The notes beneath the pieces are model-generated. The model made no database searches. It worked only from the letters and a program-made list of their open reading frames with translations, and was not told the DNA's origin. From contig JABCZY010000001.1 of the NCBI GenBank assembly GCA_013289395.1, positions 1 through 60,875 on the forward strand: a stretch of 60,875 bases of DNA, given 5' to 3'. Shown piece after piece: positions 3,603 through 60,094 of this stretch (within the stretch, counting starts at the first letter, position 1; every line of letters starts with the position of its first letter). The DNA is from Bacteroidota bacterium (GTDB lineage Bacteria; Bacteroidota; Bacteroidia; JABEUT01). A program made the position numbers and the translations under genes.

Positions 3603-3619
3603 TCGCCCGATTTATTTAA

Positions 3620-3627
3620 CAAATCTA
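3620..3627 (-). promoter_or_regulatory. Candidate Bacteroidota -7 promoter box (TAnnTTTG) for the ABC operon
   Basis: The minus strand reads TAGATTTG, 17 nt upstream of the ATG at 3602, inside the 70-nt gap after the porP/sprF gene. Confidence 0.3.
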
Positions 3628-3672
3628 CAAAATTGTAAATACGAATAAATAAATTCAGAAAGAGAACACAGA

Positions 3673-13700: not shown

Positions 13701-16700
13701 CCAAGTATATGTTGCACCTGCTACAACTGTTGCATTAAGGTTTAATGTTGTACCTGCACATATTGGGCCATTATTAGATGCAGTAGGTGAAGCAGGAATT
13801 GGATTTACAATAAATGAACCAGACACTGCACTGGTTGCTGAACCACACGTTCCACTTACAATACAATAATAGTAAGTTGTGCCAGCTATTGCTGCCGACG
13901 GTGTATAAGATGACGAAGTTGCACCACTTATTAATGTACCTCCACTATTTGATGCTGATGCATTGCTATACCATTGATACGTTAGTGTGCCGGTGCCAGT
14001 TGCGCTTACAGAAATTGCACTAAACGCTCCACCTGCACATTGTGTTTGAGTTGCTGTTGATTGACTTGTAATGGATGTTGCAGGAGTTACAATTATTGCA
14101 CCAGATACTGCACTTGTAACATTACCGCATGGACCACTAACAATACAATAGTAATAGGTTGTACCCGCAACTATAGTTGGAGGAGTATAAATGGACGCAG
14201 TTGCAACACCTATTGAAGCACCTCCGGAATTTGATGCTGATGCGTTACTATACCATTGATATGTTAATGTAGCCGTTCCGGTTGCAGTTATTGACATCGC
14301 ACTGAAACTTCCTCCCACACATTGTGTTTGAGTTGCAGTTGACTGACTATTTATGGACGTTGCAGGAGTAACTATAATTGCTCCCGACACTGCACTGGTT
14401 GTATTAGCACAAGTGCTACCTACTATACAATAGTAATAAGTTGTACCTACTGATGTTGCAGGAGGTGTGTACGTAGATGAAGTTGCTCCAACTATTAATG
14501 TACCGCCACTGTTTGATGCTGACACATTGCTATACCATTGATAAGTAAGCGTGCCAGTGCCGGTTGCAGTTACTGACATTGGACTAAACGACCCACCAAT
14601 ACACTGCGTTTGTGTTGCCGTTGATTGGCTGGAAATTGATGTCGCCGGGTTAACTATCATTGCTCCTGACACCGCGCTAGTAGATGAATTACATGTTCCA
14701 CTTACTATGCAATAATAATAGGTTGTTCCTACTAAAGTTGCAGGGGGTGTATACGAAGATGAAGTTGCACCGCCGATTAATGTACCTCCACTATTTGATG
14801 CAGAAGCATTACTATACCATTGATAGGTTAAAGGTGCGGTTCCGGTTGCAGTTACTGATATTGCACTAAAGGCCCCACTCACGCACTGTGTTTGGGTTGC
14901 AGTTGATTGGCTTGAAATTGATGTCGCAGGTGTTACTATTATTGCTCCTGATACCGCACTGGTTGTATTAGCGCAACTGCTACCTACTATGCAATAGTAG
15001 TAAGTTGTACCTACTAATGTTGCAGGAGGTGTGTATGTAGATGAAGTTGCACCACCGATTAATGTACCTCCACTATTCGAGGCTGATGCATTACTGTACC
15101 ATTGATAGGTTAAAGTACCTGTTCCAGTAGCAGTTACCGACATAGCTGTAAAACTTCCGCCAATACACTGCGTTTGTGTTGCTGTTGACTGACTCGAAAT
15201 TATTGTGGCAGGAGTTACTATTATTGCCCCGGATACCGCACTAGTAGCTGAACTACAAGTACCACTTACTATACAATAGTAATAGCTTGTACCTACTATG
15301 GTTGTGGGAGGAGTATATGAAAATGAAGTTGCACCAACTATTAATGTACCACCACTATTTGATGCAGAAGCATTACTATACCATTGATAGGTTAAAGGTG
15401 CGGTTCCGGTTGCGGTAACGGACAAGGCACTGAATGATGCGCCAACACATTGCGTTTGTGTTGCTGTAGATTGACTTGAGATTGATGTGGCAGGTGTTAC
15501 TATTATTGCTCCCGATATGGCACTGGTTGCATTAGCACAACTACTACTTACTATACAGTAGTAATAAGTTGTACCTACTACGGTTGCAGGAGGTGTATAA
15601 GTTGATGAGGTTGCACCACCGATTAATGTACCTCCACTATTCGAGGCTGATACATTGCTATACCATTGGTAAGTTAAGACACCTGTTCCGGTTGCAGTAA
15701 CCGACATTGCCGTAAAGCTTCCGCCAATACATTGCGTTTGTGTTGCGGTTGACTGGCTGGAAATTGATGTAGCAGGTGTTACTATTATTGCCCCGGATAC
15801 TGCACTGGTTGCTGTATTACATGTTCCACTTACGATACAGTAATAATAAGTTGTACCAGCTACGGTTGCTGGTGGTGTATATGTCGATGAGGTTGCACCA
15901 ACTATTAAAGTACCACCGCTATTTGATGCAGAAGCATTACTATACCATTGGTATGTTAAAGGTGCGGTTCCAGTTGCAGTTACTGACATGGCACTAAAGG
16001 CCCCACTCACGCACTGTGTTTGGGTTGCAGTTGATTGGCTTGAAATTGATGTCGCAGGAGTTACTATTATAGCCCCTGACACAGCACTTGTTAATGCACT
16101 ACAAGTACTACCCACAACACAATAATAATAGGTTGTACCTACAATGGTTGCCGGAGGCGTATATGTAGATGAAGTTGCTCCGACTATTAATGTACCACCG
16201 CTATTTGATGCACTTGCATTACTGTACCATTGATATGTTAGCGTACCTGTTCCGGTTGCAGAAACTGACATGGCACTAAAGCTTCCACCAATACATTGTG
16301 TTTGGGTTGCTGTCGATTGACTGTTTATTATCGTAGCTGGATTAACAATTATGGCTCCGGATACTGCACTGGTTGCATTAGCACATGTTCCGCTTACAAT
16401 GCAGTAATAATATGTTGTGCCTACTGATGTTGCAGGAGGTGTATATGTAGATGAAGTTGCTCCTCCAATTAAGGTGCCACCACTATTTGAAGCACTAGCA
16501 TTACTATACCATTGATAGGTTAAGGTGCCGGTGCCGGTGGCAGTTACTGACATGGCGCTAAAGCTTCCGCCAATACACTGCGTTTGTGTTGCAGTTGATT
16601 GACTGGAAATTGATGTTGCAGGAGTTACTATTATTGCCCCGGATACTGCACTGGTAGCTGAACCACATGTTCCACTTACTATACAATAGTAATAAGTTGT

Positions 16701-32036: not shown

Positions 32037-33173
32037 CTAATATTGATAGCTATAGAACTTGTTAGAATCACTTATTGGTATTGGATGTTCTTTGAACCAT
32101 TGCATGAAATTATTCCACTTTTCTTTATTAGAATCCCTCCATTTTCTAAAGCCATCAGGATCTCCTTGCATTAGCACCCAATGATTATACGCCTCCATAT
32201 GACCAGCTTTAAGAATATAATTTTGGTAAGAGAACAAAGCATTAGGGTATTTTGTGTCAAGATTCCTACCATAATACAATTCAGCGAATTTTGTTCTTAT
32301 CTTATCCAATGTATTAATATCAAGCACTTTATTCCCTGCTATCGCCATAAGCATTAAAGGATCGTATACACCTATACCAAAAGGCATTTTTACGTGTTTG
32401 GAATTACTATTAGTGATATTAATTGTATTGTCTCTGGTAAAATCAACTTTTGCGCCTTTACTATCAATAGTTATTTCTCGTTTGTAGGTGTCAAATAATA
32501 AGTTACTTATCTCCGGTGTACGTTCAGAATTTCGTTCCAGATTAATAAAGATTTCCCCATATAACATACCCCAAACAGATTCTTGTGAAGAACAATATAA
32601 AATTGAAGCCCAATAATAGTTAGAAGGGAATTCAGGCTCCAGTCTTATTCCCTCTTCGTAGTATGCTAGTGCAGTTGTATATCGCTTTCTGTTAAAATGA
32701 TAATTACCTTCCTCAAGATATAGTTTACCAGATTTGGGAAATTTCCTTAGTCCATTGTCATACGCTTTAAGGCAATTGATTGTATCTCCGAGCTCATCAT
32801 AGGTATTGCCTAACATCTGATAACACTCATCTGTAACATTGTTACTAGTTAAGGTCTTTCTAAACTGCTCTAATGCTAAAGTGTAATCTTCTTTTAAATA
32901 ATATGCATTGCCTAATTCATACAGGTAATCTATATTATTAGAGTCTTTAATACATGCTTCCTTTAGAAGTTCGATTGCACCATTATAATTCCCATTGTTT
33001 TCAAACTTTTCAACTTGATTAATAAATTCGATTGATTGTTTAGTACTTATTTGAGCCAAACAACTATTGTGCCCCAAACATGCTAATAGTATTATTACAA
33101 TTTCATCAACAGGAAATTTAATCACTGCATAGGTAAATCTTCTCACCTTAATCAAGCATTGGGTATCGGTCAC
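32037..33173 (-). CDS. TPR-repeat protein, probably exported or a lipoprotein (start codon uncertain)
   Basis: 378-aa ORF with several TPR-like units (AIELLKEACIKDSNNIDYLYELGNAYYLKEDYTLALEQFRKTL; TALAYYEEGIRLEPEFPSNYYWASILY) and an N-terminal hydrophobic stretch IVIILLACLG. The track start is a GTG overlapping the upstream gene by 26 nt. An alternative GTG one nt after the upstream TAA gives MRRFTYAV... Confidence 0.6.
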   Translation of the reverse strand: MTDTQCLIKVRRFTYAVIKFPVDEIVIILLACLGHNSCLAQISTKQSIEFINQVEKFENNGNYNGAIELLKEACIKDSNNIDYLYELGNAYYLKEDYTLALEQFRKTLTSNNVTDECYQMLGNTYDELGDTINCLKAYDNGLRKFPKSGKLYLEEGNYHFNRKRYTTALAYYEEGIRLEPEFPSNYYWASILYCSSQESVWGMLYGEIFINLERNSERTPEISNLLFDTYKREITIDSKGAKVDFTRDNTINITNSNSKHVKMPFGIGVYDPLMLMAIAGNKVLDINTLDKIRTKFAELYYGRNLDTKYPNALFSYQNYILKAGHMEAYNHWVLMQGDPDGFRKWRDSNKEKWNNFMQWFKEHPIPISDSNKFYSYQY

Positions 33174-33645
33174 TAAATAATATATATAGCTTACGAGTAT
33201 CCCTATAATATTCGACTTCCATTATATAAGCGTGGGGTTTTATTAAAACATGGGCTATAGGTCCATTATCAACCTGTATTCCAATAGATTTTATTTGATT
33301 AATCTTTTGAATTTTCTTTGCATATGCTAATTCAGTAGAACGGTTAGTATTGATAATACAATCTTTATAAATAGTGTCATTCACATAAATTTTAATATTA
33401 TTCGAATCATATGAATTCGAAAAAACTAAAAGTAGTGAATTGGTATCAGGCAGTGACGACCCTTTTTCAGGAATTTTTTTGATCTTATAATTAATATGTA
33501 CACTATATTTAGCACTCTTCTTATCTCCACTCTGCCTGATATGTGAATATCTACCTTTCACACAACAGCACTTACCATAATCACTAATTAATATATTCAT
33601 TAGCATTATTAGAAGTAAAGTCACATATGAGTATTTAGGAGTCAT
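33148..33645 (-). CDS. Hypothetical membrane-anchored or exported protein (165 aa); candidate immunity protein for the upstream metallopeptidase toxin
   Basis: Starts 14 nt after the RHS gene stop and has an N-terminal hydrophobic segment (VTLLLIMLMNILI). The immunity role is positional inference only. Confidence 0.5.
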   Translation of the reverse strand: MTPKYSYVTLLLIMLMNILISDYGKCCCVKGRYSHIRQSGDKKSAKYSVHINYKIKKIPEKGSSLPDTNSLLLVFSNSYDSNNIKIYVNDTIYKDCIINTNRSTELAYAKKIQKINQIKSIGIQVDNGPIAHVLIKPHAYIMEVEYYRDTRKLYILFSDRYPMLD

Positions 33646-33659
33646 TTTTTTGTAAAAAA

Positions 33660-36600
33660 TTATGCTGTAGAATCACCACTTGATGACTGCCCTCCAGATT
33701 CATCCCCTCCACCTGAGAAAGGTGCGCTTCCATCACCACCAGAACTGCCACTATCATTATCGGGAACACCACCTTTCATTGATTCTGCATCAGCATGGTC
33801 TGCCGTTTCCTCATCTCTTTGCCCACCACCCTCGACATTATTACTGCCACCTGAATTATTCTGTGCTTGATCCTGTGTATTTTGCTGAGCAGGCGTCGAT
33901 GTATTTAATTCGACGTTATTTGCTCCTTCATTTTTAATTATAGCATTCTTAATTTCATTTAACTGTCCTATGTTTATATCAGTGCCGCTTCCATATCTTG
34001 ATTGATACATAACATTTGTTTTTGGATCACAATAGACCCCGTTAAAATCATAATTAGCAAATTTTTTCCTTCTTCTCTTGCCATTGACTTTTTCGCCAGG
34101 ATGATTTAATCCAAGAGCATGAAATATTTCATGCACACCTGTTCTTATCATATGGAATATTGGATCTTCGTTACCCATATAAACCATATTCTCCGATCCA
34201 ATAAAATTAAGGACCTGCATGCGATTTACTTTAGTTGCCCCTAATTTATCAGTAGCACCAAGAACGATACCCTTTCCATCTCCATCAGTGCCACTAACAT
34301 CTTCTACAAATTCCAAATAAAAGTCCTTTTTAGGATCAATTTGACTTGCTTGAACAGGTATAATATTCACGTGTGTTATAAAAAGAGTACAGGTTGCAGG
34401 ATCGTATTGGGTTCCATCATCTTCGACCTCGGTTGCAATTGCATTCATAATACCTGTTAGTTGAGCATCAATTCCATTTTTACCACTATTATTCACAACT
34501 TTAATATCTACATTTATACAAACATAAGTAAACCCATCGTCATCAGTATAAGTTGTTTGAGTGGCTTCTTTTCCATCTAAGTCTATAGCAAATATAGGAT
34601 TATTTGATGCAAATTGATAAGTAGACAACTCAGGAAATGACCTTTGAACCCGATCTTCAGAGAAGAATCTACCAACCCTTGGATCGAAAAGTCTATTACC
34701 ATAGTCATATTCATCACCTTCACCATATGTCTCATCATCTTTCTCTTTTCCGTTAAAAGCATATCTATAATTTGAAGAACTGAAATTCCTTCCTGGCTCT
34801 AACATTCCAAAAGGGTAATAGTCATTAGAACTTATAATATCTGGTTCGTATACTAAGGAGTCTTTATTATTCAGCCTTTGAATTTTTCTATCAGACACAA
34901 CTGCAATAACATTTTTTAAATGGTTATAAATTTCATACTGTTTATCGCCAAGATATCTTGCAAAGGAATCAACTTGTGCGATTGGCACAGGGCTAATTAA
35001 TTGAACTGGTGTATTATCAACCCCAATTCTATTAGCACCATAAATATCTCTCTCTTTCAGAATATAGCTTACAGAATTATTTGTCATGGTCTCCATGTAT
35101 ATGGCAATAATATTGCCTCCACCGTCATGTACATAAAAAGTATTTACTGGGTAACCTGAAGTTGGTTTATATTCCTTCCTAATTCTATTAAGGCTTGCGT
35201 CATAATAAAATATTATACTATCGCCGTTATATTTTTTTATTTTCCATGGCTTTCTATAATCATTCCAGATAATTGTATCAATACCACCAGCAGTATCCTT
35301 AGCTAATTCACCCATTGCTGTATATCGATAATTATTTTTCTGATTTATCGTTGCAGAAGCCGAGTTAAATGCACCCTCATCTTTTATATCCAACGGATTA
35401 GGAGTAGATGCAGCATTATTCACATGGTATAGCCTATTCTGAAGAGTCGGACCGGTTCCATTATTGTTATTATAATGGTAATTCAATATGCTCATTATTC
35501 CACCAATGGAATCATTTCTTTGTTGAAATAATATATTTCCATTGGCATCATATGCTAAACTATCAAAGTATAATCCAGAATAAGTCATGCTGCCCCATGT
35601 ATTATTTGTTCCAAGATTTTGATACGCCCTCATTCTGACTATGCGATTCAATTGGTCATAAACATAAGAAGTACCTTGCGGCAATGGATTTATATGAATC
35701 GAAGTATCATTCGAATACTTTACTGGTTTAGAAATTGTCGTAATCATTGCAGAAATATTACCATTAAACAAATTATGGCATGAATTCATTAAGCTGCTTC
35801 CATATTTAACAGATTCAAATCTTGTTTGAATATTATTCCACTTAGTCTTATTGATAGGATCATAATCTCCTGTGAAATAATCAATGCTGTATCCAGCAGC
35901 ATCCTTTGCAAACCCTTTATTTAAATTCGATTCTATTTGTAGGCCATCACTTCCAATATCATTATTTGGTGATAGAATATCGCTATTCATTGCTTTTATC
36001 TGTCCCTGAAGAGTGTATACATAATCCATACCCTGTACTTGCTGATCCCCAACTTCAACTCTTGCTAAATGAAAATGAGGGTAGTAAAAATAATGGGCAT
36101 CGTTGTCCCAAAGAATACTATCCCTTGAGGTTGAGACATTAGTAATTCTGAAATCGGCATCAAATGAATATTTTTGATGATACTGATCTAATTGCCCTGA
36201 TTGATAATCGAGCTCATTAATTTCACCACTTACAAAATCATATTTATAATCTAATCTTTTATATCGTTGGCCAACTATTCCTGCTATTGAATCATCTTGA
36301 ATTTGTGTCGGAACATCTCCAATAATATCATAGCTATAATGGATGGCATTATTAAAAACAAGCGAATCAGTTCTCACAGTATCTCTATAGGTGATTGATG
36401 CAATTCGATTTCTTAAATTTTGTTGTTGCAATACACTTGTTGGAAGTATCTCTTGGACATCATAATAATTATGCATTACCTGAATTCTCAATCCTGTGTT
36501 ATCTTTTATCCAAGTAATATACTTATTTGGTGAAATAACACTTGGATTATAAATACCCATTATTGTATCTCCAAATATTTTATTAAAAAGGTTTGAAGTA

Positions 36601-39600
36601 TCTGCATTCTCGATTTTTTGACCACTTTCATAAATTCTACCATTATTATCATATAATATATAAGTATATCCCTTTTTAATTTCGTTGTTCTGTTTCGTAT
36701 TTTGGCTTAAAACCAATCTACCTAATCTATCATACCAATATAAACTACTAAACTCCCCACCCCTATCATTAATCAACCTTGCGTAAGGGTAATTTTGGGT
36801 ATTGCTTGGCGGAGAAGTTGAATATGATCCACCTACAAAACCATCATAAGGTCCGGTAAAGGCTATGGTATTGTAGTTTACCTGGCCTGTATTCGATACA
36901 ATACTCTTTGCAGTAAGGCCATCTTCAACAGGCATTTCAGCAAAACCAAGCGGGTTAGCTGCTGTAGTATACAGGCTAGGGTCAAGTGACTGTATCTGCC
37001 CCTGTAATATAGTACACTTCATTATTTCTCCGCCCAGGTTAACTGCGCTATCACCCACCACATAGCCTACAATATCATCGCGGAAATAAATATCGTTAAA
37101 TGTAAAGTTGGTATAATTTGTATTGGTGCTTGGTGAGCAATTTATCCAACCCGGTATGGCCAGGTTATAATAGTAAATTGAACCTTGTGCACCGGCAACT
37201 ATAAAACTATTATCTCTGAACACATGTATGGCATGAAGATCTGAGCTGGCCGGCAGTGTATGTGCAAAATTACTAACCGTTAATGTAGCACCCGATATTG
37301 CCAGTTGCAATATGCTTCCACCCGATCCCACAACATATCCACTATTCGGATAATTGGCATGAAACTTTATTTTATACCATATCTGCGTACTACTGCTATT
37401 ATACACATAAGTGCTGCCTGTACCTGCATGGGTAACTATGTTGCTACCGCTTGCTCTTCCTAAAAAGCCTCCGGTTCCTGCAACAATTGAATTACCAATT
37501 CCTGTTGTCCATACTGTTTTATAATCGGGCACACCGTTGCTGTTTATTTCAGGCAATACAGTTTGCCATAATGCGCCTCCGTTGTCGGTTCTGCGTATTA
37601 TGCCGCTATCACCTACCACAAAGCCATGGTTAACATCCATAAAATTCTCAGCCCAGAAACGGCAATCGAATAAGCTATCTACCTTCTTGCCACTTGTAGC
37701 GCCATAGGCCCACATGTTACTGTTATTACCGAATAAGAAAGCGGTACCGAAAGGAGTTGAACAAACCCCATTAAAATTTGTAACGCCTCCGCTAACACCC
37801 TGTACGGCCGATGTTGCACTTGGGCTTGATAAGAACAACTCCGTTCCATTTGCACCCGCAATATATGCTTTTGTTCCGCTATTTGCTATGCCATATAATG
37901 GCGTGTATCCAACCGGCGACAAGATTGTGGTAAAGGTGCTTAGTGCATATCCGCTAAGGCCATAGGTTGCTTTATATATTGCTGATGAATCGCCAACTGC
38001 ATATAAAGCCGTTGCATTACTAATTATTCCGCTGAGGTTTTTAAGCGTCGGCATAGCCAAGGCTTTCATGTTAACTGTACCTGAAGTAACAATTTTGCTA
38101 TAATACAAACGGCCTTTGTCTCCAGTACTAAACACAGTTGTTCCACCGGTAGGGAATACACCAAGGTCGCTGATACGGTTACTATGTACATTGGTACTTA
38201 CATCCTGCCATGTTATGCTTCCGCTGCCTATTTTTCCTTTATACATTTTATTATTTACACTATCTGCCGCACTTACCCTATTAGAACCTGTATATACCAG
38301 GTTTGTAAGTACCGCATTACTTGCCGGTAATGCTGATAATACTGAAGACTCCCCTATTTCTGCAGGAAAGCCTGATGAAGGATATCTTCCTGTTAATATA
38401 TATGTACCAGCTGTAAGAGTTGCTCCAGGTGCATTATAGGTAACAAGTGTATCATTTACGGTTGCAGTATCGGAGCCACCTATATCTGTAAAGTTCGATG
38501 TGGAGGAGCCTGAGTTACTGCTATCAGCAATAGCTAAGGTATTTACAGGGCTTGTTGATTCAGTATTGCTTAAGCGTATCAATGTTCCTTTATCACTTAT
38601 CAGAGCTGGTAACATATAGTTATTTGCTCCGTCAAATATAAAGCCAGCTTTTCGTATTGTTGTCGGGATAGGAAGTTTAGTCCATGTAGCTGTGCTTGCA
38701 CTCGCATTTGTTGTGTAATACACGTTATGCTCTTCCCCGCCAACAATCATACTAATAACACCTTTAGAATTATCCAGCGCATATACTGCTCGCAGATCTT
38801 TGGTGGTAGGGCTGTTAACAGGTATCTCTCCAAAATAAGGATTCTTTAGGCTAAGTGTGTTTACCAGTCGCACTATAAGTCCATTATATCCCACGGCCAC
38901 ACCTTTATACGTTTTTCCTGTTCCCGCAGAGTCCTTATAAAAATTCATAGAATAAAATTCTTCCCCCGGTTTACTCATCAGGTTCCATGTATGCCCACCA
39001 TCGCCGGTAGTATATAACCTGCCATGTTGAGGAGAATTATCTATCAGTGCAATACCTACATTATCATTCACAAAGAAAACATCGCGTATGTCAAATAAGG
39101 TTGCCGGTGGAACCATATACCAGTGCGCACCTTTATCTACGGTATGCATCAGTGTACCTTGTAAACCCACTGCATAACCATGACCCGGTAAGCCGGGAAT
39201 AAAGTGCATTTTATATACAGGCAAACTGTTTACGTTATTTGCTGACTTGGCCCAAGATATAAGGCCATGAGTAGAACTTGGTGTACCAATGTACATCACA
39301 CCGTATCCACTGCTATCACCTACCGCATAGAACAAATCATTCGTTGCATCCCATTTCACACTTGTCAAAGAATCGGTACTGCTGATACTTCCCGTAGGTG
39401 CAACATATGCAGGCACTCCGCCGCTGATATCCATTCCGAATGCAATTCCATTACCTACTATAGCAAGTGTATTGTCAGTTACATCAATATCAGTACCTCT
39501 CAGTTTTTGAGTTACTCCGTTTTGATATAATGGTACAATATCCCAGTTATTACCATTATCCTGGGTCACCATTACAATACCGTTATCGCCCACAACGTAT

Positions 39601-42600
39601 CCGTAATTTCCAAACGCTTTCATTACAGCCCTGTTGAAATTAACCCCTATGGTGCCATTAATTTGCTGCCAGGTATGGCCCGCATCATGTGTTTTATATA
39701 AGAACCCTCGTCGTTGGCTCTGCGGCCCTAATAAATACCCGCTTAAGAATCCATTAGACGCGTCTACAAACTGCGTACCTGTTGTTATCAATTGCGAGTT
39801 AAGTCCGTTCGGCAACGTATAATTCCATATCTGCATATTATCATCATCCGGAACACTCTGCTCGGTTAATTGGTTCAGGCTATTGTATACATAAGTACTG
39901 GAAAGCACATGATTGGTAAATATTGTATGTTGGTTATAGGTTCTGTCATGAATAATACTTACTTCGTCAGGGCTTGAATTTGATGTTATTGGCAATAGAT
40001 TCACACCCTGTGGTGGAACTGTCCGCACCAAATTACCTGCCTGATCATAGTAGTACAACGTATAATGGTACTGTTCATCTGAATATGACGACATAAGGCT
40101 TTCCACCGGGTCAAGGCAATGCTGCATATATATATTACGTATGGCAGTTGCCATGCTATCGCGATATTCATTATATGCATTCTGAGCATTGGCATTAGCG
40201 ATACCAAGCAACTGGCTAACGCAAGGGTTAGGGCTTGGATTAGGATATACAGGCTTCACCGTATCAAACGTTGCAAGAGTTGTACATGGTGGTGGCATTG
40301 CTGCATTGAACGAAATATCATCCAAAGCAAAATCATACCCTGACGGATCTGACTCACCCTGGCCGGTTAGAGTAATAGTAGCCGTGGTACTACCTGCTGC
40401 TTCCCAGCAGAAAGTTACCTGCTTCCATGTACCATAACCATTTTGGTATGAAATAACATCATGGAAGTATGATGTATCATTTATATACGCATTCACAATA
40501 GCACCAGGGTCTCCACTATATGCAGAAACATCCATGTCTTCAACCCAGAAAGAGAACTTATATGTAGTACCTGGAACTACAGTCACTGTTTGTTGCCAAA
40601 CAGTAGCAATATAATTTGGTGTATATAATAAAGGAGGGTTATTTGTGGTGCTGCACGAAGTACATGCTGATGAAGGTGCATCACAACCAAGGAAATGAGT
40701 TCCACTGTGCGGGTTACGCTGGAACTGACTACCAATACTGCCTTCAACAACATAATCATCTGTATAGTCTGTAATCTTACCTAATTTACAATCATCATAA
40801 CGCATAGCAGATCGGGTTGGGTAACCTACTGTAAGCGAGCTGGCTGGGCCTTCCGGGAAAAGTGGGGAGTTTAGTCCATAGCAAGGTGCGTTAACCGAAT
40901 ATGCAGGAACAGTTTCAAAATCTCCGTCGTAAATCAAATTAGGCCCGGTGGCAATTATATTACACGAAGGAGCAGGAGGATCGACGAAGTCTACATTGGT
41001 AATACTTAGTCCGAAATAACTAGTTGAATCAAGACAAACATGGCACCCGCTCATATACCTGGTTAGATATACGTAATAAGTCCTACCAGTATCCAGCTTC
41101 AATGCCTGGATTGAAGGTAAGGTATCACTACCTGGGTTTATAGTATTAGATGCATTACGCATATACAAAGAATCGCCTGATAAGGTATCAAGGTGAATAT
41201 ACTTCACCGCTGCAAAAGGTTGATCACCTTGATTAACTGGATTAGTAACCTTGATAAGCATGTAAGGAGAAGTTGCCACAAAGGAAACCACTGTCTCGTC
41301 TGTATCCCTTCCAAAAGAAAAATCCTGCGTTGGATAACCTCCAGCACTTCCATGTATTGCACTTGGAGGGATCATATTTAAAATAGTATCAGGTGGCAAT
41401 GGATCGCCTAATTCCAGAGGAGTGTAAGTAACAGGTGTTTGCTGCGGAATTGTGCAAGCAGTGCAATTGAGGAGAGGTATAAAACTTCTTCCACGAACAG
41501 TGTCCTGTGCTCTGAAAATCTCACCAAGACGAGGCCCCTGCCTTACTCTAAAAGTATATGATGCAACGAAATAAAAGCTATTATAATAACCACCATTACT
41601 TAAAGCACCAACAGCCGTAATCGGCCCAATGCCGGTAAGATATTTAAATCGGGCAAGGCGATTTGTGTCTTTTATGGAAAGGTAAAATGGACCTATGAGT
41701 GAATCTTTATGTGATGGTCCACTTACTGTATTAGATACCCAAAGATTAAACTTCAATGTATCAGTATATACTCCTCCTGCAATAGAAGAATCAGCATCAG
41801 AGCTTGAAGTACTATCCATTATTGAAGGGAAATAAGTGCTAATGGCTGGAGTATAACCACTGCTCTTAGTAAGATCTATATCCACAGATGTTTTAAAATC
41901 TGTTGGAAGAACACTTAACAATGATTGCAGCCCATTTATGTTCTTATATTCTGCTCCTTGGCATGTAAATGGTGTTGGTGGCATTCCGCAAGTACCTAGT
42001 GAAAATGGTCTTGGAGCCGCTGGGCTATTTGCAGGGCCCGAACTTGCAAAACCACTGATTTCAACAAGTTTGTTACCGTTTACATCCAGACCGTTTATTG
42101 TAAACGCACTTCCTCCCGTACTGTTAATGCTGTCAAATTGGTTTATGGTACTTAACGAGGCTGAGGTAAAACTTGTTGGTGTATTACCATTGATTGAAAG
42201 CCTTAATTCATTATCAGAAGGAGATGCACCCGTAATATCAAACTCTACACCTCCGTTAAAGGACCAAGTAACATTAGTGCTCGTCCAATTCATCGTATTA
42301 AGAATAACTGGGGTTAACAATGGAAGATAAGCACTAGATTGTAAACTAATATTAGTCCCTGTTAATTGTCCATTCTGCGCGAGTGCACTCATTAACCTGT
42401 TTATATCTATTGCAAATTGATTAGGCTGGCACTCTGTACTGAACTGACATCCATGTATCTGAACACATGAGGAACCACTCAGTTGCTTGAACTGGTATGG
42501 ATGAGCCGTATTTGACGGAACATATATCTCAGCCATAACAGTAAAATCATCATTACCATTAACGGCCGTTGTTGTATACTGAAGATTCTGCAATGAAATA

Positions 42601-47277: not shown

Positions 47278-50200
47278 TTATTTTTTTTGAATTCCGGTCC
47301 TGCTTTCCTGTATTGTCATTATGCCTCTTTCTGTTTCTTTTTTCACCCGTACCAGCTTACCTTCTTCATCATATTCATAAATGGTAGCATAATTCCTTTC
47401 GTCTAGTACTGCCATCAGTCTTAACGTATTGGGATCATATACATACGTTTTCAAAGTACCATTAAACGGAAATACTCTTATATCATCGAAGTTACATTCC
47501 CCACTTGCGCATGACAATTTAATATCGAAGGTGCTGGCAGTAATAGGCACAGTAAACTGCGTCTCTATTCGCTGCCATCCATCTATTATCCTTCCCTGCG
47601 GACTAAAAGCACCTAGTGTTGTGGTTCCGCTGGACGTAGTGAATACCAGATTAAGTTGAGGGTTCAGATATGTTGTATCTGTAGGAGGAGCATTATTGTC
47701 CTTAGCCCAGATACTAACTAGATAGGTCTTTCCAGGTATCAGGTTCAGACCGCCTAGGCACGTGTCACAACTGGTTGGGGTTTGCACACCAGGAACGATG
47801 ACTGTCACAGGTACGGTAACATCACTGCTGCAGTAATTATTCGCATCTGTTACTGTAACAGTATATGTCAGGGAAGAAACAGGACTGGCTATTACGGTTC
47901 CACCTGTACCGATGGTAATACCATCAGATGGATCCCAGTTAAAATTATATGGTGCTGTGCCATTGCTTCCTGTCGCAGTGAATATAACACTCTGACCGAG
48001 GTTCATACTTGCGGAAGAAGGTGTTACACTAACAGTTGGAACACTGTATGCATTAATAGTGGCAGTAGCTGTTGCACTGCAACCTTCTGCATCGGTCACA
48101 GTAACAGTGTATGTTCCTGAACTTAAGCCGGGTGCAGAGGAATTGGAGCCGCCACTTGGGGACCATGAGTAAGCAAATGGTGAAGTACCTCCACTTACAA
48201 TCGCTTTTGCACTGCCTGTAGCCGGTAAACATGCTGAAATCGATGTTACTGTAACTGTTAATGAAGGTGCGGCGGAAATAGTAACTGGCAGAGATGCAGT
48301 ACATCCGTTAGCATCCGTTACAAGGACGGTATATGAACCAATTCCTAAACCACTTGCGGTAGCATTGGTTCCACCACTTGGGGACCACAGATATGCATAT
48401 GGTGTAACCCCACCATTAACACTAACTGTCGGGCTTCCTGTCACACTGTTACCACAACCGGTTGTCGGACTTGAAGATATTCCGACTACCAGAGAATTAG
48501 GCTGAGTTACAGGTTCCATTGAACTTGTTCCTGTACAACCGGAAGCATCCGTAACCGTAACAGAATAACTTCCTGCACTAAGATTAGTGGCCGTTGAAGT
48601 TGTTTGACCATTGTTCCATAAATATGTATAAGGAGAAGTGCCGCTACTAACTGTTACGGGAATACTGCCATTACTTCCTCCATTGCAACTGACTTCAGTT
48701 ATGGTGCCTACATTAACTACCGGAGAAGATGGAGAAGCGCTTATCGTGAAAGAAGCGGTTCCGACACATCCGTTAACATCTGTTACAGACACAGAATAAC
48801 TGCCTGCTGAAAGATTGGTCGCTACTATATTTGTTTGAACCGGAGAAGTGCTCCATGCATAGGTATATGGCGCTACGCCACCACTTGCCCTTACTGTTGC
48901 GTCTCCCGTAGTGCTGCCACATACCGGTATGGTAGTTACTGATGGTGTTGGCAAAGCCGTAGGCTGAATAGTTACGGACGCAGTTGCGTTACAACCGTTG
49001 GCATCAGTTACTGTAGCTGTATATGTACCCGATGAAAGATTGGTTGCAGTCGCATTTGTCTGGATGGGCGAGGTATTCCAGGAATAGCCATATGGAGAGG
49101 TCCCTCCTGTGGCATTTACTTTTGCACTTCCACCGCCGCCGCCGCCACAGCCTGCATTTGTAATTGAACCTATAGTTGCGGATGGAAGAGGATTCAATGT
49201 TATTACTATCGTTTGGGTATTTATACAACCATTGGAATTTGTTCCGGTTGCTGTATATGTTGTAGTTACAGTTGGGCTAGCAGTTATGGTTGCGCCTGTT
49301 GTAGCACTCAGATTTGTATTAGGAGTCCAGGTGTAGGTACTTGCACCACTAGCAGTTAATGATGCTGAGCTTCCGAAACAAATTGAAGCTGATGAAGGTG
49401 TTATGGTAAGTGTTGGAAGGGGATCTACTGTTACAACAACCGTCTGAGTATTTACACATCCATTTGAATTTGTTCCGGTTGCTGTATATGTTGCAGTTAC
49501 AGTTGGGCTAGCAGTTATGGTTGCGCCTGTTGTAGCACTCAGATTTGTATTAGGTGTCCATGTATAGGTACTTGCACCGCTGGCAGTCAGTGATGCTGAA
49601 CTTCCGGAACAAATTGAAGCCGATGAAGGCGTTATCGTAAGCGTTGGGAGTGGATTTACTGTTACAACAATTGTTTGAGTATTTATACATCCATTTGAAT
49701 TTGTTCCGGTTGCTGTATATGTTGCAGTTACAGTTGGGCTAGCAGTTATAGTTGCGCCTGTTGTAGCACTCAGATTTGTATTAGGGCTCCAGGTATATGT
49801 GCTTGCGCCACTGGCAGTCAGTGATGCTGAACTTCCGGAACAAATTGAAGCCGATGAAGGCGTTATCGTAAGCGTTGGGAGTGGATTTACTGTTACAACA
49901 ATTGTTTGAGTATTTATACATCCATTTGAATTTGTTCCGGTTGCTGTATATGTTGTAGTTACAGTTGGGCTAGCAGTTATGGTTGCGCCTGTTGTTGCAC
50001 TGAGGTTTGTATTAGGGGTCCAGGTATAGGTACTTGCACCACTAGCAGTTAATGATGCTGAACTTCCCGAACAAATTGAAGCCGATGAAGGCGTTATCGT
50101 AAGCGTTGGGAGTGGATTTACCGTCACAACGACTGTCTTAGTATTTATACATCCATTTGAATTTGTTCCCGTTACAGTATAGGTTATTGTAACAGTAGGA

Positions 50201-56800: not shown

Positions 56801-59800
56801 CTGCGTTATTTGGAACACTGCACTTGCTAATGCCCCCAGCACATCCAGCAATTTTGCTTTATCAGTGATCTGTGGTTCATGCCACATAACCCTTGGGGTA
56901 TATAAACGTCCGAATTGCAATGCTGTTTTTATTATTGGTGAAACAAACCCACTGCCATTCCCATCTAGTTGTACTCCGCTAAGCTGAACATAACCATGCG
57001 CACCATCCGAGCAAACTCCCACACTACTCGGTGGAGCATATCCACTTACATATTCATAATATGGAGGAGAGACACTGATCTGCATTAGAAAACGGAAATA
57101 GATATATGGTAGCCCATTAAAATATTTTGCCGGATCTGTTATGTAGTGATTATTGGCGTCCTTTTGAAGTTCAAAAAACAAGTAATAGTTTTGATCAGAC
57201 TGAGATGAACCGGAACCGGATGTTAAAGGGAATGCCTGATATTGTGAGCCAATAGCAACAGAGTTACTAGTTCCTGCTCCGACAACCTTGAACATTTGTG
57301 TTGTCGGTGTATTCTGAACATAGGAATATTGATTGGATTCAAAATCCACATGGATGGAGCCTCCTGAAGGTAATGTGATATCTGTCAGTGTCCATGCGGC
57401 CACATATTGGTCCTCATTCGTTTTATTTTGTTCCACATAAGGATATTCTGCCGGACATAATGCTGTACCAAGAGCCGCTCCTTCACCTGGGTTAGGCTTG
57501 TATGTACCCCAACGGTTATATGCCTTTATATCATAAGGGAAATTATACTGTGGAAAATTATTATAGCAATATGTAAATTTATATGGGCTTAATGCGCCCT
57601 TGAAAGAATTCTGATACGTAAAATATACTTGCTTGAGTGTAAGCTTACCGGTATTTATACCTGTATTATTAATTGCATTGATATTATTGGGAATATTCGG
57701 ACACAGTTCATAATCATATACAAAATGCACTACTTCTATAGGAACAAGTGCCACACTGGAATTCGCCAGATGTGCATTATAGTTGGGTTTGGTATATAAA
57801 CTTATCGAATTCAACACCCGCTGGCTGTGGCTGGTATCCGGATCGATACTTCCATTTCCATCTGTGACCCCTAAGCCGTCCAACCTTGCCTGGGTATTGA
57901 ATACGGCTATATAATTCTTAGTTTCAATCGAGTTCAGGTACCATAATTCTTTCTGACCATATATGTAATTCCCTTTATCATCCGTGGAATCTGATTTTAA
58001 TCCTTCTTCATACGATGCTTTATTCGCTCCCATTGGCACTCTCCAGTTATAATAAGTAGGCCTCTTCTGATAATTGAATTTCGTCCATGTTCCCAGATCG
58101 CCATCACTCGGCCCGCGTATTCCATCAGCGTCAACATAGTCAGCAGAGAGAACAGCCGTCAGTAAATAGCTATGGGCATAGGGAGGTGTCTTGATATCGC
58201 TGTAATAATTATCTATCCCCTTGGGGTTATTTATAGAATTATCGCCAGATAAATAATTCACTAATCCACCGTTGGGGTCCACATGGTCTCCGACATCAGC
58301 ATTCGCATCAATTCCTGTTGCAAATGTGACTTCTTCCTTTTTGATATTGTACGCGGCGATGCCATACACATATCTCTTACCTCCGGTACCTAATGATGTT
58401 ACTTGCCCGATATGATATCCCTTTCCATTGTACAAATTCATTCCTGTGGTATCTTGTAAGCCGAAATTGTGCAATTGATCCCTGGTCAGCATTGATATAC
58501 TTTCATTCCTGATATCGCGATTCAGCCTGTAGTTTTTACCCGATACCTGGAGGCCTGATTCATATGTATTTGTAGCTACTGTATTGAACTGTGATATCTG
58601 GTTAAGCTCCAGGCGCTGTGGATCAAACCCTCCTACTTTCGAAAAAAATGCAGGATCAGAATCAACAGATTTTTCATTAGCCTCCTTAAAATAAACGGGC
58701 TCATAAAGTGGGTTTCCTCCGCCAGTTGAGTTGAAGGACAGATCACCATACGCCGTATTTCCTGCAGACCAATCCCCGCTATAACTTATAACATCCGCAT
58801 TTGACCAATCCACTCCAGCATGAATGATATCTCCTACTGATACCTCCATACCTACTGATTGGGCATTGCTCGTATTTACATTATATGGATCAAATACATG
58901 CCCGATGTCACTGCGGAAAGGCCTATAGCTTCCACTCATACCTTGCCCTGAGACAGAATAAATATCATATGTAAAGTTTGTCAATGGAAGGTCTGGCGTA
59001 TTCTGATTAAATACTCCATCCTTTTCACGGTTAAAATCCATCATTGCACTTGAATTACCCACTCCCGCATCTGCGTGCATGTACCCAAAAGCAGGATTGT
59101 AAATGCTGTTCGTTGCTAAGTATTGAGAAGATTGATATGCTTCAAAATTCACAGTTTCACTGTAACCACTGATCTCGTATCCACCCTTTACACTACCCGT
59201 CACTGAAGAATTTACGAGAGGTAGTGATATTTGCGGTGTGAAAGTTGGCATCATTTTATTAAAGGTTGCTGTTGGTGCAAACTCCGTTTCTGAATGACTT
59301 ATATTTGAACCATCACTGTGTAATGAATAACCAATACTGGCCCCTATTGTCATATTTTCAAGCCCTTGTCTTGAATTAAAAGTCTGGCCGATATGAATAC
59401 CCAGGTTTGTAGAAGCATTATCACCGCTTTTAATTCCAACACTAAGACCTGCATACGGAGTGATATTGACTCCTTCATCACTGCTTGAACTGAGGCCATA
59501 GCCAACCGTTAATTGTCCGCACGAAGGCTTACCAACACTCAGGCTCGGGCAAATTCCAACTTCTGCACCTATTCCCGTATAATTATTGTATTTTACTCCC
59601 AGCGAATATGTAATTCCTGCATTCAGTATTTCAAGACCGAAAAGTTCACCACCTTCGGTAAGACCAGTATTTAAACCATACGTGTCATTCTCCTTCATAT
59701 TAAAATCACGCTCTATGGTATCCCCGTTGAAATCATCTGGAATGCCACGTACTGTCCGTGTTATAGCACCTGCGTTTATGTTCCAGCCTAGTCCAACCCA

Positions 59801-60094
59801 GCTAGCTTCCTGGTCCATGGTTACACCTGACTGGTATGCTAAGTTGATGGGGTATCCGTCCACATTTAATAATGGGATATTATATGAAAAACTGCCAGAG
59901 AATGGGTCGACCATATCAGATGTTCCTACAGGTTCGAAACTATCAACCTCAGGTTGGCTCGGCCCGCCACCAAGCGTAAGCGCATAGTTAGGAGCCCCCA
60001 TCTCAAAAAGCAAAGTAAAGACAATACTAAGGGCAACCGTTTTATTTAACGGTTTTCCAAATTTCTTCTTTATTTTATTAATTGCTCTTCTCAT
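53876..60094 (-). CDS. Giant (2072 aa) exported protein with an SpvB/TcdB(TcB)-type N-terminal domain and C-terminal SprB-like repeats
   Basis: aa 38-125, LTLGGGPSQPEVDSFEPVGTSDMVDPFSGSFSYNIPLLNVDGYPINLAYQSGVTMDQEASWVGLGWNINAGAITRTVRGIPDDF, parallels the SpvB/TcdB N-domain pattern (LPKGGG...G.....PL....G....L.Y.SG.....GLGW......I.R....G.P.Y). The C-terminus carries SprB-like units (GGTAPYTYKWTG...VTDSKGCTAQATVTG). It overlaps the upstream lipoprotein gene by 4 nt. Confidence 0.85.
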   Translation of the reverse strand: MRRAINKIKKKFGKPLNKTVALSIVFTLLFEMGAPNYALTLGGGPSQPEVDSFEPVGTSDMVDPFSGSFSYNIPLLNVDGYPINLAYQSGVTMDQEASWVGLGWNINAGAITRTVRGIPDDFNGDTIERDFNMKENDTYGLNTGLTEGGELFGLEILNAGITYSLGVKYNNYTGIGAEVGICPSLSVGKPSCGQLTVGYGLSSSSDEGVNITPYAGLSVGIKSGDNASTNLGIHIGQTFNSRQGLENMTIGASIGYSLHSDGSNISHSETEFAPTATFNKMMPTFTPQISLPLVNSSVTGSVKGGYEISGYSETVNFEAYQSSQYLATNSIYNPAFGYMHADAGVGNSSAMMDFNREKDGVFNQNTPDLPLTNFTYDIYSVSGQGMSGSYRPFRSDIGHVFDPYNVNTSNAQSVGMEVSVGDIIHAGVDWSNADVISYSGDWSAGNTAYGDLSFNSTGGGNPLYEPVYFKEANEKSVDSDPAFFSKVGGFDPQRLELNQISQFNTVATNTYESGLQVSGKNYRLNRDIRNESISMLTRDQLHNFGLQDTTGMNLYNGKGYHIGQVTSLGTGGKRYVYGIAAYNIKKEEVTFATGIDANADVGDHVDPNGGLVNYLSGDNSINNPKGIDNYYSDIKTPPYAHSYLLTAVLSADYVDADGIRGPSDGDLGTWTKFNYQKRPTYYNWRVPMGANKASYEEGLKSDSTDDKGNYIYGQKELWYLNSIETKNYIAVFNTQARLDGLGVTDGNGSIDPDTSHSQRVLNSISLYTKPNYNAHLANSSVALVPIEVVHFVYDYELCPNIPNNINAINNTGINTGKLTLKQVYFTYQNSFKGALSPYKFTYCYNNFPQYNFPYDIKAYNRWGTYKPNPGEGAALGTALCPAEYPYVEQNKTNEDQYVAAWTLTDITLPSGGSIHVDFESNQYSYVQNTPTTQMFKVVGAGTSNSVAIGSQYQAFPLTSGSGSSQSDQNYYLFFELQKDANNHYITDPAKYFNGLPYIYFRFLMQISVSPPYYEYVSGYAPPSSVGVCSDGAHGYVQLSGVQLDGNGSGFVSPIIKTALQFGRLYTPRVMWHEPQITDKAKLLDVLGALASAVFQITQVNKGLNGSLYDQGFCNNFVIDKSWIKLNSPGTGKLGGGARVKDIMMNDQWKAMTSVEPSFDYGQQYSYTLPDGVTSSGVASYEPQIGGDENALHTPVFYSSSALQVPDDQYYMETPFGESFFPSPSVGYSMVTVKNLQRANVHRNATGSVVHEFYTTKDFPTITKQTDLQPIPETTDPASLSSLFNVTSMSYMTASQGYSIELNDMNGKPKKQEVYQEGQTTPISSVQYFYQCTPYLGNNSFELSNNVTVVNPDGSLGKNNIGVFFDDVNDFRSEETDNTSAATMINLDVINIAGPPIPIPMVLPSNTSEYIRFRSCVNTKVIQRYGILDSTIVTDLGSTVKTQNLAYDAQTGNVLLTKTTNDFNDSIFNMAYPAYWYYSGMGAAYSNIGVSISNSTTTFTNGIAMIPNASSMFYPGDELALTGSTTGIVAWVTAVNGNNITAEYKSGIKVTGPFTNLEVIRSGRRNMQDMDMANITSLVNPINSLQSNSYQKITQASAREYTDSWSTYCNCFTQSGDNTDNPYVLGIRGNYRLKTSLLYLTTRDQSNFDNNTNIRSDGTFNSYNPFYSESGGSWQMTPNNWTYTSSVTNFNPYGQEIESVDALGRYSSATFGYNQTLPTAVAANSKYQEMGFDGFEDYGFDGCADNHMDVNRTGIVLDPTQAHTGRHSLLVTSGTPVTIGGQITTCTPVNPCNLTLCGMKTGNVDLSVLEIVPEGGTAPYTYKWTGANLYFNSDGYPAIKTNYSGSYTFTISVTDSKGCTAQATVTGNSTSFSGIPQCPPPCNLSLCYNAGPQQNQVFVLAASGGSGNYTFTIPSSVQSSTLTSNGEFVIDYSTLFRNLPLTITVTDANNSSCSYSTEITGVSRSNLTTTNQTIQSCCSLQLCYSVTPQSDGSTAITVSPVGGAATYSFTGIRTSGLASAVTFTNNGSSYTATYSPSYNGSFEVYASDENGCVGQATIIFDGGTVSASIPVCN

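Follow-up and report, generated by a model that had tools for sequence, protein, structure and literature searches.

Two tandem Ycf48-like propellers inserted in the predicted Rhs/YD shell of a giant Bacteroidota polymorphic toxin

In this study, we analyzed a window of 60,875 nt from a Bacteroidota bacterium (contig JABCZY010000001.1 of assembly GCA_013289395.1), in which a complete minus-strand open reading frame (ORF) of 12,858 nt, at positions 33660-46517 with the stop codon included, encodes a giant Rhs/YD polymorphic toxin of 4,285 aa according to the ORF list and its translation. The YD/Rhs domain of this protein is interrupted by an insert of ~1,025 aa, which is a pair of tandem Asp-box propellers related to Ycf48. 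The boundaries of the insert, the identity of its propellers, its site in a modelled hairpin and a family-wide architecture with variable toxins were established here. We believe that the protein is probably a Sec-exported polymorphic toxin whose Rhs shell carries the inserted propeller pair as an external binding module.

Propeller-decorated YD/Rhs shells have so far been found in three lineages, namely the Tc toxins, the teneurins with their rare bacterial relatives, and the mosquito protein SGS1. The proteins described here add a fourth, independent and abundant one, previously undescribed, with more than 100 diverged proteins of ~4,000 aa in which a Ycf48-like propeller is doubled and sits at a different site. 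They show that accessory domains have repeatedly docked at the N-terminal rim of the shell, and they leave the picture of teneurin origins unchanged.

The insert and its place in the shell

A preliminary description of this sequence had placed about 1,000 aa of Asp-box propeller blades inside a YD shell, at positions 36794-40076 of the window, which correspond to aa 2148-3242 of the protein (residue i begins at nt 46517-3(i-1)). A homolog search with aa 2140-3260 as the query gave 80 proteins, onto which the full giant was then mapped by BLASTP. In 52 of these homologs, the residues aligned to aa ~2076-2231 and to aa ~3257-3985 were contiguous, with a subject gap of -54 to +8 aa where the query has one of 989-1038 aa. 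Across the site, the canonical proteins have an uninterrupted consensus (...YxYNSLNQxxxQxTPDxGxSxFWYDxLGRLV...), and the same stretch of the window protein reads YVYNSLNQLTEQSVPDDD, then ~1,025 aa, then GGEFSSLYWYDRLGRLV. Because the flanks are contiguous in 52 homologs, aa ~2227-3257 (positions 36747-39839; all features of the giant gene and its gene cassette given below lie on the minus strand) are a clean insertion. The insert-bearing proteins share a conserved junction sequence, PD[HD]DxMxIWExxLPNGL. The insert-free homologs and the propeller profiles thus bear out the interruption of the YD shell. Its limits had been set somewhat differently: the YD motifs at aa 2150 and 2209 and the dense run after the blades are present, but the insert itself covers aa ~2227-3257 and the downstream YD region begins at aa 3258.

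Two YD hairpins stand ahead of the insert (aa 2150-2226, positions 39840-40070, placed by their motifs YHYTLYYYDQAGNLVRTV ... YVYNSLNQLTEQSVPDDD), and they are nearly invariant across the 52 canonical and 14 insert-bearing homologs. The YD-type motifs of this region were read at aa 2150 (YHYTLYYYDQAGNLVRTV), aa 2209 (YVYNSLNQLTEQ) and, on the far side of the insert, aa 3259 (LYWYDRLGRLV). Directly ahead of the hairpins lies a conserved pre-shell segment, here called X (aa 2076-2149, positions 40071-40292), which aligned immediately before the shell in all canonical homologs in the BLASTP comparison. It is predicted to form a long alpha-helix, at aa 2098-2135 in a model of the insert region (model A) and at residues 25-63 of the homolog P0016 in a second model (model B).

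Within the insert, exact Asp-box motifs (S/T-x-D-x-G-x-x-W) occur at aa 2276, 2318, 2459 and 2504, and near aa 2975 there is a variant, RTDNGGALW; only one further partial match lies elsewhere in the protein. Five Asp-box-like motifs had been listed before, of which four are exact and the fifth is this variant. When the segment aa 2150-2750 was scanned, Pfam PSII_BNR matched aa 2246-2332 with E 3.6e-13 (49.9 bits against a cut-off of 27), and Sortilin-Vps10 matched aa 2246-2333 with E 4e-8, so the search for BNR-type and sortilin-type repeats proposed earlier gave positive results. A second, weaker PSII_BNR match was found at aa 2958-2986. Judged from the sequence, the Asp-box and propeller signal is far beyond chance. 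A single-sequence search of the PDB with the first propeller found Ycf48 with E about 0.011, the only PDB match of the giant by sequence, and a family profile of the second (A5) matched the Ycf48 structures 5OJP, 8AM5 and 2XBG with E 2e-12 to 6e-12. The propellers are no orthologs of Ycf48, since on its NCBIfam equivalog model (PRK13684) the insert reached 47 bits where 326 are required. Outside the family, the nearest relatives of the insert are proteins that are secreted through the T9SS (type IX secretion system) and consist of two or four Ycf48-like propellers.

Model A was an AlphaFold2 prediction of aa 2076-3275 from a 50-sequence alignment, with a mean predicted local distance difference test (pLDDT) score of 68.6 and a predicted TM-score (pTM) of 0.36. 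A single propeller had been described, and the model divides it into two domains. Propeller 1, of the Ycf48/PSII_BNR type by Pfam and model A (aa ~2240-2650, positions 38568-39800), is predicted as an all-beta domain of 33 strands with pLDDT mostly 75-90. Propeller 2, a divergent Ycf48-like domain by model A and the family profile (aa ~2735-3170, positions 37008-38315), is predicted as a second all-beta domain of 38 strands with pLDDT mostly 70-90. Between them, a Ser/Thr-rich linker of about 60 aa (aa ~2665-2724, positions 38346-38525) is predicted to be disordered (pLDDT 29-43) and has almost no homolog coverage. The second propeller is followed by a low-confidence return segment (aa 3171-3257, positions 36747-37007, pLDDT 33-49), which would be either a final blade or the link by which the chain returns to the shell.

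A blade hidden Markov model (HMM) built by iteration was scanned on the insert. It found seven matches in propeller 1 (five with E<0.001) and seven in propeller 2, together with one weak match in the return segment (aa 3204-3235); over propeller 2 and the return segment, three matches had E<0.01. Each propeller is predicted to have about 8-9 blade-like units if the unmatched strand groups are counted as blades. A Foldseek search with the 1,200-aa model of the insert returned generic tandem propellers (megalin, AIP1, PorZ) and named no specific family.

The main body of the YD/Rhs shell (aa 3258-3899, positions 34821-36746) was recognized by its homology to canonical shells, with 30-40% identity over ~730 aa. 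The closest insert-free homolog, P0016, is 44% and 40% identical to the window protein on the two flanks of the insertion site, and its residues 151-892 align to aa 3258-3995 with 40% identity. The run of YD repeats described downstream is therefore real by homology, at 40% identity over 740 aa, but Pfam RHS_repeat stayed under its cut-off there. Model B was an AlphaFold model of P0016 (1,074 aa, pTM 0.72, shell pLDDT ~90), and it is through the homology to P0016 and this predicted structure that an Rhs/YD shell is assigned to the giant.

In Foldseek, model B matched TcC, TcB-TcC, SGS1, a bacterial teneurin-like protein, type VI secretion system (T6SS) Rhs proteins and teneurins with E 1e-24 to 1e-16. 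The highest similarity was to TcC chains (TM-score normalised to the target 0.67-0.68). The proposed comparison with teneurin and TcB/TcC structures accordingly holds for both, but the teneurin side has no advantage: TcC or SGS1 gave E 3e-24 to 8e-24, and the bacterial teneurin-like protein 9IFO (E 6e-23) was no better, with the teneurin 6FB3 at E 3e-20.

The insertion point falls at residues ~146-150 of model B, a tight turn between strands 140-145 and 149-155 with pLDDT 85-92. Upstream of the site, the model shows a helix of 39 residues, the first YD hairpin (with low confidence), a short helix and then the second hairpin, which consists of strands 131-134 and 140-145 (pLDDT 79-85). The propellers would thus be attached to a hairpin at the N-terminal rim of the shell, with the strand pairing read from the secondary-structure string of the model and from repeat homology.

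A family of insert-bearing Rhs proteins

This architecture belongs to a large family. With aa 2140-2420 as the query, which contain both hairpins and the first blades, 1.84 billion cluster representatives were searched exhaustively with HMMER; the search returned 135 clusters (50% identity) at E<=1e-30, most of the proteins being 3,500-4,600 aa long with a single match across the junction. When the whole window protein was compared with the 135 junction representatives by BLASTP, ~85 of them (3,000-5,200 aa) were colinear over the N-terminal DUF6443 module, the middle, segment X, the shell and the core, with a match covering at least part of both propellers. The insert has a median length of ~1,000 aa in 34 members. 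When GTDB species genomes were scanned, at least 80 species, nearly all of them Bacteroidota, proved to carry the junction. The carriers include cultured strains as well as closed or near-closed chromosomes of metagenome-assembled genomes (MAGs); among them are Fluviicola chungangensis MAH-3, a Fluviicola taffensis record and Pedobacter xixiisoli CGMCC 1.12803, and members of Crocinitomicaceae, Parvicellaceae, Saprospiraceae, Chitinophagales and Cytophagales. With 135 clusters and at least 80 GTDB species, the layout is the norm of a large family and no isolated case.

Two junction genes were found in records named as Gammaproteobacteria, one in 'Glaciecola amylolytica' THG-3.7 (L033, CP034120.1) and one in a Saccharospirillaceae MAG (L046); they could reflect horizontal transfer, mislabelling or mis-binning. 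In two assemblies, the giant gene is split into 3-4 consecutive ORFs (L001, 405-8233; L002, 3680-12668), which carry a DUF6443 piece, a middle piece, a piece with X and the propellers, and an RHS piece. These splits are either pseudogenes or assembly frameshifts. Two candidates for an 'X plus propeller' protein free of a shell (P0011, P0014) were rejected, as they are giant genes broken into consecutive ORFs in which the RHS pieces follow.

The Rhs-associated core (aa 3900-3982, positions 34572-34820) was matched by NCBIfam TIGR03696 with E 9.4e-12, at 45.3 bits where the cut-off is 32.5. It contains the two aspartates of the bipartite aspartyl autoprotease motif (DPxG...DPxGL), at aa 3952-3957 (FFSEDRV) and aa 3972-3982 (NNPIFAIDLDG). 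Their contexts in the giant, FFSEDRV and NNPIFAIDLDGK, are variants, and the family consensus at the motif is SxDP...NxPIxxxDxxG. The core is followed by a variable C-terminal toxin (aa ~3983-4190, positions 33948-34571) with a metzincin-type HExxHxxGxxH motif, HEIFHALGLNH, at aa 4129-4139 and a weak Pfam Peptidase_M10 match (E 0.021). This toxin had no sequence relative in the PDB, no match to a Tox-MPTase family and nothing in PADLOC. An Rhs core and a C-terminal toxin behind the shell had been predicted in the preliminary description, and both were found. According to the translation, the protein ends in a tail of 95 aa of low complexity, rich in Gly, Ser and Asp (aa 4191-4285, positions 33663-33947).

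The colinear family members match the giant throughout except at aa 3995-4190, and the toxin region is unmatched in most of the ~85 representatives. A conserved body with an unmatched toxin in most members is the signature of a polymorphic toxin family. An ORF of 165 aa lies directly 3' of the giant gene (positions 33148-33645) and is, by its position, a candidate immunity protein. It had no family match in Pfam, NCBIfam or PADLOC. In five of the five other loci in which that side is visible (L001, L003, L085, L086, L087), a small unannotated ORF also stands 3' of the giant gene. A GTG-start ORF with tetratricopeptide repeats (TPR; 32037-33173) overlaps the 3' end of the 165-aa ORF by 26 nt (33148-33173), and the gene caller used for L004 gave shorter, non-overlapping genes at this boundary.

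Several sister proteins carry other inserts close to the propeller site. P0070, P0060, P0080 and P0074 have an insert of ~200-270 aa between the first and second hairpins, one hairpin upstream; in the first three it is Pfam Laminin_G_3, a ConA-like lectin domain, and in P0074 it resembles these by eye and had no Pfam match. P0033 has a ~230-aa insert after the third hairpin, one hairpin downstream, again with no Pfam match. These five inserts had been candidates for the propeller site itself and were rejected, because the alignment puts them in adjacent loops. With inserts in the neighbouring loops of sister proteins, the start of the shell (its first ~100 residues) is a preferred place for the display of accessory domains, several of them lectin-like.

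A general survey of polymorphic toxins has listed beta-propellers together with RHS repeats among Sec-exported toxins and did not describe the giant-Rhs family (PMC3482391). In the searchable literature we found no paper on 'DUF6443', and the family has no description there. The paralogs with and without the insert form a natural set for testing the role of the propellers, and the family is a reasonable entry to contact-dependent antagonism or adhesion in environmental Bacteroidota.

Possible role of the propellers and comparison with known shells

It has been established for Rhs, Tc and teneurin shells that the C-terminal domain is enclosed and that the core aspartyl protease releases it. We propose that in the giant two Ycf48-like propellers, joined by a flexible Ser/Thr-rich linker, are spliced into the turn of a hairpin in the first shell sheet, directly after the helical pre-shell segment and the two YD hairpins. 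By analogy, the shell (aa 3258-3982 with the two upstream hairpins) would enclose the metzincin-like toxin, which the aspartyl protease of the Rhs core would free inside the shell. The propellers would lie outside, at the N-terminal rim of the shell, where they may bind a ligand or receptor and direct the loaded shell to a target cell or a surface glycan. In this they would parallel the NHL propeller of teneurins and the receptor domains inserted in the shell of SGS1. As the helical pre-shell segment is kept in the insert-free homologs, closure of the shell does not require the propellers. This dispensability, together with the lectin-like inserts in adjacent loops of sister proteins, argues for an external binding module, and in the predicted structure two propellers on a flexible linker look more like a reach-out module than a lid.

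Some points weigh against this proposal. As to export, Pfam and NCBIfam scans of the giant found no T9SS C-terminal domain, and T6SS markers were not searched. The pTM of model A, which covers the propeller-bearing region, is only 0.36. In both models the first YD hairpin has low confidence, so the placing of the upstream strands in the shell sheet rests on the second hairpin and on homology. When the insert was deleted in silico, the Pfam scan gained no RHS_repeat match over the junction, although in P0033 RHS_repeat spans the hairpin equivalent to the insertion hairpin; one repeat split in two thus has indirect support. By analogy, a gating role would also be possible, as the gate propeller of TcB likewise sits at the N-terminal rim.

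The true homologs of the giant are the canonical DUF6443/Rhs proteins (for example P0016, P0029, P0050, and P0042 and P0080 from Niastella/Chitinophaga). They share the DUF6443 module (28-38% identity), the pre-shell segment, the shell (30-40%) and the core, but they are free of the ~1,025-aa double propeller, and some have a LamG-like insert one loop away. Ycf48 is a seven-bladed protein of ~330 aa that acts in photosystem II assembly. The closest sequence relatives of both propellers are Ycf48/HCF136 (2XBG, 5OJP) and the tandem 'YCF48-related' proteins of the T9SS, which have two or four tandem propellers. Differing from Ycf48, the propellers of the giant measure ~410-435 aa each against ~300 aa and have no photosystem context; the T9SS proteins are free-standing and carry a T9SS C-terminal domain, whereas the propellers of the giant are embedded in a toxin shell.

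The topology of the giant is a propeller inserted into a YD domain, as in YenB/TcB and propeller 2 of SGS1 (PMC5851990; PMC9935623). SGS1 has a nine-bladed propeller, a carbohydrate-binding module (CBM) and a lectin domain inserted in its Rhs sequence (PMC9935623). Like the giant, SGS1 (8FJP; PMC9935623) is a giant single-chain Rhs/YD shell that displays inserted accessory domains, its Foldseek match to the P0016 model has E 8e-24, and the Bacteroidota family also inserts propellers or LamG-type domains. On the other hand, propeller 2 of SGS1 prolongs the chamber and contains internal helices, the blades are of a type other than Asp-box, and its origin and C-terminal payload are unlike those of the giant.

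The TcB-TcC proteins (TcdB2-TccC3, 4O9X/6H6G; YenB-YenC2, 4IGL) resemble the giant in their shell, which the homolog model matches with E ~1e-24, and in having a propeller within the YD-repeat domain, with YD hairpins on both sides of the giant's insert. The TcB propeller docks onto TcA. A serious rival, although we regard it as fairly unlikely, is therefore a TcB-like gate or adaptor, in which the propeller(s) would close the N-terminal opening and dock the shell onto a partner encoded in the cassette, with a rearrangement controlling release. The closeness of the canonical shell to TcC chains is in its favor, and so is a conserved cassette whose ~2,000-aa protein belongs to a family with weak N-terminal matches to SpvB (10/31) and DUF6531 and whose other large protein, the neighbour of the giant, ends in a CBM-like domain and an RHS repeat. 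The insert also lies at the N-terminal rim, the end at which the TcB and SGS1 propellers sit (PMC5851990, PMC9935623). However, the helical pre-shell segment and a complete shell are retained in the 52 insert-free homologs and paralogs, which makes the propellers dispensable for shell closure, and three of the adjacent-loop inserts in relatives are lectin-like Laminin_G_3 domains that are unable to gate. The giant is a single chain with two Ycf48-like Asp-box propellers and a disordered linker between them, against one integrin/FG-GAP-like propeller in TcB; its insert comes after only two hairpins, and the TcB propeller stands at a different position in the chain. Pfam found no SpvB in the giant, every SpvB signal in the neighbour family was under the Pfam cut-off, no TcA-like neighbour was found, and the profile of the neighbour's N-terminus matched no TcB structure.

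The preliminary description had equated the order FN-plug (fibronectin-type), propeller, shell, core and toxin with teneurins and TcB-TcC fusions. The theme of propeller, shell, core and toxin stands, but there is no FN-plug or NHL, and YD strands precede the propellers. Like teneurins (6FB3, 9IFO), the giant has a propeller at the N-terminal end of a YD shell of ~800 residues, an Rhs core, a C-terminal toxin and a large adhesin-like N-terminal region. A true teneurin-like protein by descent, in which the NHL blades were replaced by Asp-box blades, would fit this order and the matches of the homolog shell to 9IFO and 6FB3. We consider such descent highly improbable, as model B matches TcC, TcB-TcC, SGS1 and T6SS Rhs shells equally or better, and the homology of the propellers is to Ycf48-like proteins. 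A helix is predicted for the pre-shell segment, and the propeller of the giant is doubled and inserted after YD strands rather than placed before the shell. Pfam and NCBIfam scans of the whole giant and its segments found no fn3, NHL, FG-GAP, SpvB or sialidase, and no fn3-type Pfam match appeared at E<=5 in any segment; the FN3-like stretch read earlier at aa 195-300 is 1,900 aa distant from the pre-shell segment. What defines teneurins and their bacterial teneurin-like counterparts is the succession of an FN-plug, an NHL propeller with six blades and a YD shell (PMC5851990, PMC13018210). In an HMM survey devoted to them, teneurin-like proteins turned up in six phyla, with Bacteroidota not among them (PMC13018210). 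The likeness to teneurins is most probably one of analogy, not kinship. We also think it very unlikely that the propellers are catalytic modules, that is, glycoside hydrolases (sialidase or GH74-like) acting on target-cell glycans. Asp-box repeats are a common feature of sialidases and of certain glycosidases, and the Sortilin-Vps10/BNR signal of the insert agrees with this, but the closest sequence families, Ycf48 and sortilin-type propellers, are non-enzymatic, no sialidase or glycoside hydrolase family matched in Pfam at E<=5, and each propeller has a predicted ~8-9 blade-like units against six blades in sialidases. An artefact, in which a chimeric or mis-assembled ORF fused a Ycf48-like gene into an rhs gene, could be imagined for a metagenome source, all the more as the equivalent gene is broken into several ORFs in L001 and L002. 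It was rejected as next to impossible, since an identical full-length protein is present in the independent assembly SRR8422916 and more than 100 diverged representatives, including cultured strains, share the colinear architecture and the conserved junction. An identical 1,737-aa fragment of the protein was also found in JGI data (P0001).

The N-terminal region and the gene cassette

Reading of the translation suggests that the giant begins with a probable Sec signal peptide (aa 1-23, MRTSIKIAAVLLVFLWGSMEVKA, positions 46449-46517), with a basic n-region, a hydrophobic core and VKA-G. A DUF6443 domain (Pfam PF20041) follows at aa 330-505 (positions 45003-45530) and is interrupted by a ~55-aa insert: aa 330-390 correspond to profile positions 15-77 and aa 444-505 to positions 74-135. 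The YD repeats that had been reported at aa 338-385 fall within this domain. Over its first 560 aa, the giant shares 32-42% identity with the N-terminal ends of 8 further Bacteroidota Rhs proteins. In the PDB, no solved relative was found with a profile of the DUF6443 module. BLASTP showed that aa 1-1100 are a module common to many DUF6443 Rhs proteins, so the N-terminal region once thought to be an extra peculiar to the giant is widely shared. A weak CBM_4_9-like segment (Pfam PF02018, E 0.004, under the cut-off) lies at aa 1975-2050 (positions 40368-40595).

The giant gene is part of a conserved cassette (window 33148-60753), which is also found in L003, L085, L086, L087 and L002. Its order is a 220-aa ORF, a ~2,000-aa protein, a variable adhesin-like protein, a LolA3-like protein of ~250 aa, the giant and a small ORF. 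In the window, the LolA3-family gene (251 aa, positions 46521-47276) lies 3 bp 5' of the giant gene and matched NCBIfam NF053579 with E 5.7e-26 (91.5 bits against a cut-off of 83). LolA3-like homologs occupy the same position in L085 and L086, and genes of 236-253 aa in L087 and L002. LolA3 has no known function in Flavobacterium johnsoniae (PMC11885536).

The adhesin-like member is an SprB-repeat protein of 2,176 aa. Its last ~170-220 aa (47281-47940) consist of a CBM_4_9-like domain (E 2e-4) and an RHS/YD repeat (E 8e-4), with weak PDB matches to the YD repeats of Rhs proteins and teneurins. In five other loci, proteins adjacent to the giant that are otherwise different end in a tail 44-55% identical to this one, which may be a docking or sorting module. 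The ~2,000-aa member has 2,072 aa in the window, and its homologs (37-49% identity) adjoin the giant in four other loci. Its N-terminus (58745-60094), with the motif GGGPSQPEVDSFEPVGTSDMVDPFSGSFSYNIPL, belongs to a widespread Bacteroidota family with 340 matches and no Pfam annotation. Within that family, SpvB matched 10 of 31 members (best E 2e-4) and DUF6531 matched 2, all under the Pfam cut-off, and a profile of the N-terminus found no TcB structure in the PDB. A kinship of this protein with TcB/SpvB was therefore rejected.

The cassette hints at a multi-component system but proves nothing. We regard it as doubtful that the giants are the toxin part of an undescribed, Bacteroidota-specific multi-protein delivery system encoded by the cassette, a convergent counterpart of Tc toxins and teneurins. 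Such a system would comprise the SpvB/DUF6531-like ~2,000-aa protein, adhesin-like proteins with CBM and YD parts, a periplasmic LolA3, the giant and the immunity gene; the propellers would serve for docking or gating as in Tc toxins, and the partners with YD parts would assemble onto the giant.

The neighbours in the window, SprB-repeat giants among them, mark the genome as one of Bacteroidota, in agreement with the names attached to the homologs (Bacteroidia, Saprospiraceae, Flavobacteriales, Chitinophaga and Niastella). A second giant of the window (3673-19499, minus strand), of 4,932 aa and unrelated to the Rhs giant, is an Ig_7/PKD adhesin that carries a CHU_C type-B T9SS sorting domain and is followed by its PorP/SprF partner (343 aa).

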